Shown here: positions 27,001 to 30,000 of the stretch, in pieces
Position numbering within the stretch: the first letter of the stretch is position 1
Layout of the letters: every line of letters starts with the position of its first letter
Virus record (IMG/VR): IMGVR_UViG_2880395615_000010
Origin: a virus
Taxonomy: Duplodnaviria > Heunggongvirae > Uroviricota > Caudoviricetes
Length of the DNA stretch: 64,000 bases
Strand: one strand, 5' to 3'
Program-made: the position numbers

Positions 27001-30000
27001 CCAGCGTCCTTCAGAGTGGGCGCTGGCTTTTTTTATTATGCTGCCGGTGCATTTATCTCCAGCATCAGACTTTCTATCTCAACGCCATACGCTGCATTTT
27101 TTGTAACATCCGTCAGCGTCAGCGCATTCAGTCCCAGTGTCAGACTGTCTTTTATAACCTGGAATGCCGGGCCAGCCACTCCATTCAGTTTCGGAGTAAC
27201 CGTGGCACTGCCGGCGGTGAACACCAGCTCCAGCGTCTGCCAGTCGTTACCGTAATCGCCGAACTCCCCCAGCTTCGTGTTTCCGGCTTTCCTGTGATGC
27301 ATCAGATTCACTCTGCCGTCAGTGGTCTGAGTGAAGTACGACATCAGGAACGGATCCCCCCAGCAGCTCATCCAGAATGGCATCCACTTCAGCATCAAGA
27401 CGCGCCTCAAGATTCTGGCGGAGTTGCTGTTTCAGTGCGCTTCTGACTTCTTCAGAGCGCAGGACGTCCTTCACTGCTTCAGCAGTGACCAGAGATTTTA
27501 TTTCTGACATGGGATTTTCTCGTTGAAAGGTGTTGTTAAGAAAGTTGCTACGAAATGAGAGGCTCTTCGGGTTTTGTTCCGGCTGACTGGCTGGCGCTGA
27601 TTTTTTCCGCCGCCGCGGCATCAATCTTTTTGCGTATATAGTTCCGGATAACCTTATACCCGCCACTTACCAGATATAACGTGCACACCACCGTGCAGAA
27701 ATACAATAAAATAAGCTGTACAAATCTCATTATCCCTCCCGGTTATTGATATGGTGTTGACATCGTTAATACCTGTTGGTTAAAAAAGTGTCCTGCATGT
27801 TTTGCTTTGGATATAACGACATTTGCCGCCGGTTCTGGCTCCTTGTTTTCCCTGCCCCGGCGGCCTTTTTTTTCCTGCTTACGGGTTATTCACTTCCACT
27901 GTTATACTTTCAATCAGCACCGGATATGTCGCACCGCTAGTGATATCGGTCACGCGCAATTTGTCTGCCGTAAACGTGCCGACCGGTGACTGTGACAGCA
28001 TGAACGGCGTCCCGTCCTTACCATCAATGACCGGCGTCACCTCAATACTGTTGTTACCGGCAAAACGGAAGCCCAGCGTATGCCATTCGTTATCAAATGC
28101 GCCGAATGACCCCAGCTTCGTGTTCTGACCAGCATTTCCCTTGTAGTACATCACATTAAGGTCTGTGGCATCGCTCTGTACGTAAAACGACGCCAGCAGG
28201 TTATGACCGGCATTACCTTCCAGTGTGACGCCCTGAGGCAGTGAAGAAACCGGCCAGTACAGCGCCAGTGCGTACTGATTAGCTGTCAGTATGCCATCAA
28301 CTTTAAAACGACAACTGATAAGCCCGCCCTTCTCCAGCAGGTCTGCGCCATTACCGGCATCATGCTGCATAAACCACGAGGAACTTCCTGTCTGTTTGGT
28401 CCACCTCAGCGCCTTACCTCCTGCAGCACCTGCATCATCAACTACCAATGCACGCCCTCCTTCAGCTCCCCATCCCTGCGGATTCAGTAAACCACCTGAC
28501 TCTGTTGCACGGTAATAAAGCAGCGTTGTCACTGATTTCCCGTCCGTTGGCCACCATCCCCCGTGCCGGGCACAACCACTGGCGTGGTCACATCCCCCTC
28601 CGCGGCAATCGCCTGCATCAGGGTATAAGGGGTTATGGCCACCGGACTACCAAACGGCTGCCAGCCCTCTTTCAGTTTGTGTGTCAGCTTTTCCGCAAGC
28701 TCTGACGGCGACGCCGCCTTGACAACATCATAGTGTTTAAATGCCATGGTTCTTTCCACCATCTAAAAAATAATTCTTTAAGATACCTGACATGTAATAC
28801 ACAAAACCACACCTTAAATAAAAACCTCATCATAAAGCAGATATGCATGGATAAACTACAAGACGAGGTATAAACCACCCTGCATTTAAATAAATAATAA
28901 ACAACATCAGAAAAATAATTCTGCCCTATGGTTTACATTCAAAATTATCATTTATACTTTTCAGAACAACACCAGCAAGGCATAAACAAGGAAACTAAAT
29001 GAAGTGGATTGTGATTGATACAGTTATCCAGCCATCATGCGGAATATCTTTTTCAGTCATATGGAGTAAAATAAAATTAATAATCTGGTATCAATCGGAT
29101 GCTTTCTTACCTCCTGAAAGTATATTTACACTGACTCACACAGGTATCATGCTCAATAACAAAGTGCTACCTGTAACCATTTACAACGTAGTACCATTCA
29201 ATAAAACATTCTGGAATTTAATCAAAAACAGCCAGGAATGCCCTACAAATACAGATAACGTATTGAATGAATGCTTTAATAACCGTTGCACTCTGCAAAT
29301 ATGTCCTTATGGACTAAAACAGCAAAGTCCATAAGGAGTTTACTCACATCTGACAAAATCAATATAAACAGCCCCTCCGGAGAGGGGCTGGAGAGTGGCG
29401 CTATGTGCCATTGCATGGTGCCGGGTGCCTCCCGGTGAATTCAGTACCAGCACCTGAATCCGCGATTATCCCATATACCTACTCGCTGATTGCCCCTCCG
29501 CACAGGGGGATTCACCATGCCAGTTTCTTTTAACAAACTCCCCGCAAACCAGACAACAGTCAACCGCCTGAATTGTGAGACATTTAAAAAAAAAGCCCGC
29601 AAAAGCGAGCCAGGGAAAATAAGTGTGGCGCGTTGTACTGGATTCGAACCAGTGACCGATTGCTTAGAAGGCAATTGCTCTGTCCGGCTGAGCTAACAAC
29701 GCAGGATACAGATAATGGACCGCCTTCGGGGACCCGAACTCCGCGCAACCAGCTTCGAAAGCTGGCGCTCTTTCCTGATGAGCTAATGGCGGTATGTGAT
29801 GGTGGCCCTTGCTGGATTTGAACCAGCGACCTGGCGATTATGAGTCGCTCGCTCTCACCACTGAGCTAAAGGGCCGGGAGCAGAATAATAATGGTGCGTA
29901 ATTAATTCTGCAATCTCATCCGTTTCAAACGATTAAATCCTGAACTTCCCTGACTGTCTGCTCAAAACGTCCGGTCTCCAGCTCAACACCAATCGCACGA

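Follow-up and report, generated by a model that had tools for sequence, protein, structure and literature searches.

The late region of the prophage contained in the window, the 64,000-nt stretch of DNA analysed here, raises the question of whether an accessory cassette of an unfamiliar family lies beside the position occupied by stx in Stx phages. The three open reading frames (ORFs) on which the first-pass annotation based this view are present on the minus strand between the phage tRNA genes and the holin gene (28529-28762, 27879-28532 and 27036-27410). They had been read as a translationally coupled pair of genes for proteins of 77 and 217 aa, followed by a degenerate copy of the second. 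The locus is very probably what is left of nanS-p, pseudogenised by an out-of-frame deletion together with a second illegitimate joint; the features involved are listed in Table 1. All four pieces already carry a pseudogene flag, as incomplete, in the RefSeq PGAP annotation.

Table 1. Features of the putative nanS-p remnant locus and its landmarks, in window positions.
Feature	Position	Strand	Basis
Three phage tRNA genes (Ile/Met-CAT, Arg-TCG, Arg-TCT), upstream landmark	29626-29875	-	ARAGORN, RefSeq
iraM-like anti-adapter gene	28999-29334	+	RefSeq WP_000871291.1; phrog_4407 E 3e-73
nanS-p 5' remnant, DUF1737 domain and linker	28529-28747	-	Pfam DUF1737, EDL933 alignment, RefSeq pseudogene without C-terminus
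Junction 1, blunt deletion joint	28549-28550	-	blastn against EDL933 locus, base-by-base comparison
nanS-p 3' remnant, C-terminal lectin-like jelly-roll DUF6645	27879-28549	-	Pfam, PDB, EDL933 alignment, RefSeq pseudogene without N-terminus
Intact DUF1378 gene, usual nanS-p downstream neighbour	27548-27730	-	Pfam DUF1378 E 5.8e-40; WP_001213059.1
DUF826 5' remnant	27319-27510	-	Pfam DUF826 E 1e-26, profile positions 1-57 of 75; RefSeq pseudogene
Junction 2, DUF826 to second nanS-p	27354-27356	-	Sequence comparison
3' remnant of a second, divergent nanS-p allele	27036-27355	-	E2348/69 alignment, Pfam DUF6645 E 2.9e-9 (124-aa ORF)
Holin S, class II (P21-type), downstream landmark	26537-26743 or 26537-26812	-	Pfam Phage_holin_2_1 E 3.5e-32; RefSeq

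NanS-p is a prophage-encoded sialate (Neu5,9Ac2) O-acetylesterase composed of three domains: DUF1737, the SASA esterase and a lectin-like DUF6645. Its gene usually resides in the late operon of lambdoid/Stx phages, between stx or tRNA genes and the DUF1378-DUF826-holin genes. The order in Stx phages is Q-stx-nanS-p-S, and mitomycin C raises nanS-p by 1-2.4 logs together with the late genes (PMC10462455); according to a review, it belongs to the late genes whose expression rises most. The gene order in the window agrees with that of the intact reference loci in 23CRST047, EDL933 and phi24B. The late-region position beside the stx slot, as first annotated, is thus upheld as the position of nanS-p, which normally follows stx (phi24B annotation; PMC10462455). 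The slot between the tRNA genes and nanS-p, which is the stxAB site in Stx phages, is occupied here by the iraM-like gene, a neighbour that lies outside the remnants; E2348/69 and 23CRST047 encode the same protein at this position. No Pfam or PHROG match to stxA or stxB homologues was obtained among the ORFs of 25543-29334, and stx is absent from the RefSeq annotation of the prophage. The product of the DUF1378 gene is also encoded in EDL933.

The protein searches identify the family at levels well beyond chance. The 217-aa protein, considered unassignable at first, matches DUF6645 (PF20350) at E 4.9e-70 and, over its full length, PDB entry 6yp6 ("NanS-p") at E 5.4e-97, so that the supposedly unknown cargo belongs to a known family for which a crystal structure of the same domain exists (PDB 6YP6, the C-terminal domain of phi24B vb_24B_21/gp84; Franke et al. 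2020). The 77-aa ORF contains DUF1737 (PF08410; E 1e-16, profile positions 1-53 of 53). Both ORFs fall on a single PHROG family, PHROG 143 (634 aa), the shorter on profile positions 1-58 and the longer on 421-630. When two full-length NanS-p proteins were compared with the 64-kb window by tblastn, the only matches were to residues 1-66 and 424-645, and to 506-612. The central SASA/SGNH esterase domain with its catalytic blocks I-IV was detected neither as a PF03629 match in any ORF (Pfam) nor anywhere in the 64-kb window (tblastn). In a large protein search, the 217-aa ORF retrieved only E. coli proteins, nearly all of them named 'partial' sialate O-acetylesterase or DUF6645, and gave no evidence of an independent stand-alone family. 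The "cargo" is a well-studied prophage gene, and its pseudogene locus is nothing unusual. The first-pass annotation had stated that unambiguous similarity to a structural protein of a phage would count against its own cargo reading, and the match found is arguably of that kind, the orthologue gp84 being a capsid-decorating protein on the T=9 podovirus head of phi24B (bioRxiv 10.64898/2026.04.10.717836).

The first two ORFs correspond to an allele of the type carried by a non-Stx lambdoid prophage at 1.64 Mb in EDL933, whose NanS-p (WP_000023170.1, 645 aa) is annotated as 'SASA family carbohydrate esterase'. Window positions 28740-28550 align with nt 8-198 of the EDL933 gene at 97.9% nt identity (94% aa for residues 1-66). 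Positions 28549-27355 align with nt 1268 onward at 99.75% nt identity, a segment that spans codons 423-645 and continues through DUF1378 into the first 52 codons of DUF826, and the order remains the same as far as the holin. Upstream, the window has iraM whereas EDL933 has TerB/DUF3927 genes. The main difference is the absence from the window of 1069 nt (EDL933 nt 199-1267, starting with codon 67 and ending after one base of codon 423), which takes out the entire SASA esterase domain. Because 1069 mod 3 = 1, the frame shifts at junction 1, and the continuous frame of about 610-650 codons that characterises NanS-p is broken by the deletion. The 5' remnant accordingly consists of codons 1-66 followed by six out-of-frame codons (QRTGNQ) and TGA. 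The most likely real start of this ORF is ATG 28747, 15 nt downstream of 28762, because MAFKHYDVV begins intact NanS-p and is the start in the RefSeq annotation. A PDB sequence search with the resulting 72-aa DUF1737 fragment returned only chance-level allophycocyanin matches (E above 0.1); the PDB copy used contains no solved structure for it.

The four-base overlap that suggested coupling is GTGA and not ATGA: the GTG at 28532-28530, with which the 217-aa ORF starts, overlaps the TGA at 28531-28529. In the parental gene, this GTG encodes an internal Val (codon 429 in EDL933, V424 in phi24B gp84). A blunt illegitimate deletion of 1069 nt removed the catalytic SASA/SGNH domain and spared codons 1-66 and 423-645. 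The upstream frame ends six codons past the joint, at a stop that accidentally overlaps the former internal valine GTG. ORF finders report a 'coupled' 217-aa gene because of this accident; the pair was not designed as a unit, and the overlap is a by-product of the frameshifting deletion. A frameshifting internal deletion can therefore mimic a translationally coupled gene pair, with the 217-aa piece listed as a gene by ORF callers. No stop codon interrupts the 217-aa frame, which retains the four aromatics assigned to the proposed sugar-binding site (Y510, Y515, Y540 and F611, all conserved in a comparison with phi24B gp84 residues 424-640 at 69% aa identity). The open frame is no sign of selection, because only about 0.25% of bases differ from the intact EDL933 allele and the deletion is too recent.

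Both deletion endpoints fall near natural domain boundaries, within the two linkers between the domains, and self-cleavage of NanS-p into these domains has been reported; the pieces may therefore have some residual function. The locus could in principle encode a functional esterase-less variant in two pieces, with DUF1737 decorating the capsid and the 217-aa lectin made by termination-reinitiation at GUGA, which would mimic the N- and C-terminal products freed when full-length NanS-p cleaves itself. For gp84, such cleavage between domains is reported to leave DUF1737 alone on the capsid, and most DUF1737 proteins in databases are single-domain (2528 of about 3000; bioRxiv 10.64898/2026.04.10.717836). 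The placement of the endpoints within the linkers, the retained aromatics, a GGGA that weakly resembles a Shine-Dalgarno sequence and precedes the GTG by 5 nt, and a first residue equivalent to gp84 V424, one residue into the crystallised fragment 423-645, are all consistent with this arrangement, and the 217-aa ORF is called by gene callers (cluster P0001, n=92). Nevertheless, every relative that bears a name is an E. coli sialate O-acetylesterase labelled 'partial', and the arrangement is rare (8/5426 genomes) and identical by descent, with no independent recurrence of the split; selection cannot be read from it because its carriers show no sequence divergence. The capsid offers a further objection. 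DUF1737 binding has been shown on the T=9 phi24B capsid, whereas this prophage, a lambda-type siphovirus, has head genes (RefSeq) for a major capsid protein of the lambda type and for its own gpD-like decoration protein. The DUF1737 fragment is only 54% identical to residues 1-59 of gp84 and aligns with a 3-residue gap at the loop bearing Tyr42, the anchoring residue of gp84. We consider the two-piece variant very unlikely.

A -1 ribosomal frameshift on G GGA AAU (28541-28535) offers another way of joining the pieces, as it would restore a 289-aa fusion of DUF1737, linker and lectin spanning ...GDGGQRTGKSVTTLL, that is, a capsid-anchored lectin without esterase. The heptamer is read in the zero frame immediately ahead of the TGA and conforms, in phase, to X XXY YYZ; a shift there enters exactly the parental frame (...GKSVTTLL). 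The phage lambda G/GT frameshift uses a similar sequence, G GGA AAG. In E. coli, A-AAU slips poorly relative to A-AAG. The heptamer is unchanged from the parental gene, where it stands in another phase, and is therefore a coincidence and not an adaptation. The 95 nt past the heptamer fold no better than shuffled sequences (z = -0.36; 60/200 shuffles at least as stable), so that no downstream stimulatory structure was found. The site, tested as a programmed -1 frameshift signal, was rejected on both grounds, and we regard the fusion as extremely unlikely. That the locus still supplies a capsid-binding DUF1737 and a sugar-binding lectin in either form, as two proteins or as the fusion, has only a slim chance; the outcome would be a head decoration that binds mucin or glycan and has no esterase.

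The preferred reading of a decayed nanS-p extends to the third ORF, which involves a different allele. The 'unrelated small ORF' said to precede it is the beginning of DUF826 (ATG 27510): 52 native codons, 11 out-of-frame codons (SVPDVVLHSDH) and TGA, compared with an 89-aa protein in EDL933. At junction 2, DUF826 codon 52 is joined to codon 511 of a nanS-p allele of the type found in the EPEC strain E2348/69 (WP_000874298.1, 616 aa). The remnant retains codons 511-616 (106 codons), the C-terminal half of its DUF6645 domain, out of frame behind the DUF826 fragment. It has lost its native start codon, and the TTG at 27410 is part of DUF826 sequence. Together with the next 242 nt, the remnant corresponds to the last 320 nt of the E2348/69 gene and the DNA downstream (window 27355-26794, 98.9% nt identity). 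The window and E2348/69 also have iraM and the first 159 nt of nanS-p in common, and their order is the same up to nanS-p; in E2348/69, the DUF1378 and DUF826 genes are absent and IS elements precede the holin.

Over 106 residues, the two DUF6645 pieces are only 38% identical in aa sequence, and their DNA has no more than a 52-nt patch of about 80% in common. Local duplication was rejected on this ground, and the supposed degenerate copy of the 217-aa protein is, judging by its sequence, a divergent allele introduced by illegitimate recombination. The second illegitimate joint fused DUF826 codon 52, out of frame, to this different nanS-p allele, which explains the 'truncated paralog'. Base-by-base comparison found no microhomology at junction 1, and that at junction 2 amounts to about 1 nt; the joints are therefore plain illegitimate ones and not repeat-mediated. 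A novel late-expressed cassette, made of two coupled genes of an unfamiliar family that were locally duplicated and then decayed, would account for the late-operon position by the stx slot and for the four-base overlap. It is barely credible when the first two ORFs represent opposite ends of a single known gene that a frameshifting deletion has brought together, and when the DUF6645 pieces differ so widely while matching, at 99-100% identity, two different known alleles. The decay itself was correctly recognised, as the nanS-p pieces are frameshifted and the catalytic domain is lost. What is removed is a false lead: the supposed unknown cargo beside stx is a decaying accessory gene that was already known, and the result is of little significance.

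A Q-dependent late transcript would be expected to cross the region still on induction. The 72-aa DUF1737 fragment, which keeps its native start, is probably translated, whereas translation of the lectin-domain ORF would be weak at best and none is expected for the second remnant. Because the catalytic domain is deleted, the locus should be incapable of yielding an esterase product, and Neu5,9Ac2 esterase activity is predicted to be absent. The fragments are probably passengers without function. In phi24B, by comparison, gp84 is a single 645-aa esterase encoded at the same site, upstream of DUF1378/DUF826 homologues and S. The chromosomal NanS (YjhS) of E. coli K-12 belongs to the family of the catalytic domain once present in the parental gene (literature) and differs in having neither DUF1737 nor DUF6645; no NanS-homologous sequence is left in the window.

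Both junctions co-occur, identical, in the same 8 of 5426 complete E. coli genomes; an assembly artefact was rejected, since these genomes are independent. The hosts of the broken-gene prophage include O55:H7, O157:H16 and O2:H16 strains, as well as dog and chicken isolates. A comparable arrangement occurs in phage vB_EcoS-640R1 (ON470612.1), which has iraM, a DUF1737 ORF, a short DUF6645 ORF with a four-base overlap and the holin, and in which SASA is likewise deleted. It stems from a separate event in an E2348/69-type allele, with a TGG to TGA change and a deletion of about 1.49 kb that leaves 53 C-terminal codons. The window, this phage and strain D1, which has a further IS66 insertion within the same locus, document at the sequence level a repeated loss of nanS-p from non-Stx lambdoid prophages. 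Such loss fits a dispensable, redundant gene, because strains may carry several alleles: EDL933 has multiple active ones and an O104:H4 strain has five (review). A probe for junction 1 matched three places in the 2013C-4465 record, which suggests that this strain keeps intact nanS-p copies in other prophages.

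All three ORFs between the tRNAs and holin S were recovered in the ORF listing at the positions reported in the first-pass annotation, which had assigned the 217-aa product to no family. Pfam places the 77-aa ORF in DUF1737 (E 1e-16), the 217-aa ORF in DUF6645 (E 4.9e-70) and the 124-aa ORF in the C-terminal portion of that family (E 2.9e-9); the ORF preceding the last covers positions 1-57 of the 75-position DUF826 profile. Because the 634-residue family PHROG 143 is matched at both its ends, by the 77-aa ORF (positions 1-58) and by the 217-aa ORF (positions 421-630), the two apparent genes are, as judged by profile matches, both ends of one longer protein. 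At the sequence level, its identity as NanS-p was settled by a PDB search, in which 6yp6_A ("NanS-p") matched the full length of the 217-aa ORF (E 5.4e-97). In EHEC, NanS-p is the Neu5,9Ac2 O-acetylesterase encoded by prophages (PMC8065619, PMC10462455). Its C-terminal domain, crystallised from vb_24B_21 of the Stx2 phage phi24B, is reported to adopt a lectin-like jelly-roll fold, and carbohydrate binding has been proposed as its role (Franke et al. 2020, as cited in PMC8065619, PMC10462455). A tblastn search of the whole window with two full-length NanS-p proteins aligned residues 1-66, 424-645 and 506-612 only, the esterase domain being absent throughout. All four pieces are already incomplete pseudogenes in RefSeq for E. 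coli 2013C-4465: DUF1737 without its C-terminus, DUF6645 without its N-terminus, DUF826 without its C-terminus, and DUF6645 again without its N-terminus. The decay proposed earlier is borne out; the locus is very probably a decayed nanS-p, a known gene annotated so before.

The chromosome of 2013C-4465 is 100% identical to the window. According to RefSeq, the locus lies in a lambda-type prophage, read on the minus strand, with genes for a gpE-like capsid protein, a gpD-like decoration protein, lambda-like tail proteins and NleG effectors; no stx is annotated in this prophage. Its integrase is annotated as frameshifted, which may leave the element defective. T3SS effector genes are annotated on both sides of the prophage.

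Features of the locus from high to low coordinates, followed by other prophage and flanking features
Feature	Position	Strand	Remark
DNA methyltransferase gene			ahead of tRNAs
Three tRNAs	29875-29626	-	ARAGORN
iraM-like gene	28999-29334	+	opposite strand
77-aa ORF	28762-28529	-	
217-aa ORF	28532-27879	-	
DUF1378 gene	27730-27548	-	
DUF826-like ORF	27510-27319	-	ATG at 27510
124-aa ORF	27410-27036	-	
P21-type holin			after 124-aa ORF
329-aa ORF	25543-26532	-	between holin and lysozyme
Integrase	43310-44360	+	frameshifted
NleG/DUF1076	103-1550	-	tail-fibre end of prophage
espJ and EspF-repeat (tccP-like) gene	44954-46804	+	beginning of second, adjoining prophage

The intact EDL933 locus at 1.64 Mb runs from nanS-p (645 aa) through DUF1378 and DUF826 to the holin. 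Window 28740-28550 matches nt 8-198 of this nanS-p (97.9%), the adjacent base 28549 resumes at nt 1268, and 28549-27355 follows EDL933 at 99.75% identity across the remaining nanS-p, DUF1378 and part of DUF826. The 1069 nt thus absent begin with codon 67, end on base 1 of codon 423 and comprise the entire SASA/SGNH esterase domain. The junction is blunt, base comparison with the EDL933 locus revealing no microhomology, and since 1069 is not a multiple of three (remainder 1), the upstream frame passes from ...PGTGDGG into QRTGNQ and stops. This TGA (28531-28529) overlaps the GTG (28532-28530) that starts the 217-aa ORF, giving GTGA where ATGA had been reported. In the parent the same GTG is an internal valine codon (...STDGKS-V-TTLLYYRATE...), corresponding to V424 of gp84, the phi24B NanS-p, the second residue of the crystallised fragment (423-645). 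Because the stop overlaps a parental internal codon, the apparent translational coupling is a side effect of the frameshifting deletion.

The phi24B gp84 is reported to be a capsid decoration protein whose DUF1737 domain forms a hexamer on hexons and which self-cleaves between its three domains; single-domain DUF1737 proteins number 2528 of about 3000 (bioRxiv 10.64898/2026.04.10.717836). The 217-aa ORF therefore arguably matches a phage structural protein, a match that the first-pass annotation took to speak against cargo. Because the deletion ends fall in both inter-domain linkers of NanS-p, it is conceivable that a capsid-binding DUF1737 piece persists beside a free lectin piece, the latter made by GUGA reinitiation, which could be aided by a weak GGGA motif 5 nt before the GTG. 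It is likewise conceivable that a -1 slip at G GGA AAT (28541-28535), in the zero frame right before the stop, restores a DUF1737-lectin fusion. However, the heptamer is unchanged from the parent, where it stands in another phase, and the RNA 3' of it is no more stably folded than shuffled sequence (z = -0.36). Moreover, the DUF1737 fragment shares only 54% identity with that of gp84 and is gapped, in the alignment, at the anchoring loop that carries Tyr42, and the lambda-type head has its own gpD-like protein. Together, the split and fused products appear very improbable.

The 217-aa frame retains Y510, Y515, Y540 and F611 (alignment to gp84) and differs from the intact EDL933 allele at ~0.25% of bases, a divergence at which an open frame and kept aromatics are uninformative on selection. 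Given an origin from decayed nanS-p, the pieces are likely functionless.

The 124-aa ORF has a different source. Window 27355-26794 matches the final 320 nt of nanS-p from E2348/69 and the following 242 nt (98.9%). At this second junction (27354-27356), DUF826 codon 52 is joined out of frame, with ~1 nt of microhomology, to codon 511 of an E2348/69-type nanS-p, and the DUF826 frame stops 11 codons further on; the TTG at 27410 sits in DUF826 sequence and is not a start codon of the remnant's own. The homology behind the earlier "truncated paralog" is real, but local duplication followed by decay is ruled out: the two DUF6645 pieces share only 38% amino acid identity over 106 residues, and for each a different known allele is a near-identical match, which indicates a mosaic of two late regions. 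A 115-aa ORF from the ORF finder (27319-27666, -), with a GTG start in a different frame within the DUF1378 gene, is an artefact; the true DUF826 start is the ATG.

Probes spanning each junction were run against 5426 complete E. coli genomes. Both junctions occur, at 99-100% identity, in the same eight (2013C-4465, O55:H7 DEC5B, O157:H16 98-3133, O2:H16 BA92, D1 from dog, Z1323CEC0012 from chicken, MFDS1001074 from food, and Z1323HEC0355); the joints are therefore not assembly artefacts, and they mark a single rare lineage of the prophage. Hundreds of further genomes match one half of each probe only; where the location is listed, the match falls within an intact SASA esterase or DUF826 gene. 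In D1 (NZ_CP010134.1, locus L010, 2827-4678), an IS66-like element of the ISCro1 family, truncated itself, separates DUF1378 from the DUF826 fragment, a further erosion step of the same locus. Phage vB_EcoS-640R1 (ON470612.1, locus L008, 4326-4687) carries an E2348/69-type nanS-p wrecked independently, by TGG to TGA past codon 67 of the annotated ORF and a ~1.49 kb internal deletion. Its leftovers, a 67-aa DUF1737 ORF and a 53-aa C-terminal ORF with a four-base overlap, mimic a coupled gene pair, as do those in the window. The short families PHROG 6393 and 12088, whose matches are confined to the C-terminus of the 217-aa ORF, are probably more fragments of this kind.

Stx phages have the order Q, tRNAs, stx, nanS-p, (DUF1378/DUF826), S (PMC10462455; phi24B annotation), and nanS-p rises 1-2.4 logs under mitomycin C (PMC10462455), ranking with the most strongly induced late genes (PMC8065619). 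The late-operon position claimed earlier beside the stx slot fits this order; that position and decay survive of the original interpretation, and the unknown family, designed coupling and duplication do not. Owing to their place in the Q-dependent late region, the remnants would share its transcript and be transcribed upon induction. The 72-aa DUF1737 fragment would probably be translated, since its native start is retained; the second remnant lacks any start, and an esterase product from the locus would be impossible.

The slot between tRNAs and nanS-p, which holds stxAB in Stx phages, is occupied here by an iraM-like anti-adapter gene (111 aa, WP_000871291.1), and this, not the nanS-p remnants, is the true cargo gene of the stx-equivalent position. 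The identical protein occupies this place in E2348/69, 23CRST047, D1 and vB_EcoS-640R1. A terminator-like hairpin (29369-29390) lies near the gene. The tRNA at 29800-29875 (-) is Met (anticodon CAT) by ARAGORN and tRNA-Ile (AUA-reading, ileZ type) in RefSeq and the phi24B record, the usual CAT-anticodon ambiguity. RefSeq calls only the first 112 codons of the 329-aa ORF, as a truncated YdfR (DUF1327) pseudogene; because PHROG 1085 covers its full length (residues 1-329; E 2.5e-180), the ORF may instead be an intact, longer member of the YdfR family.
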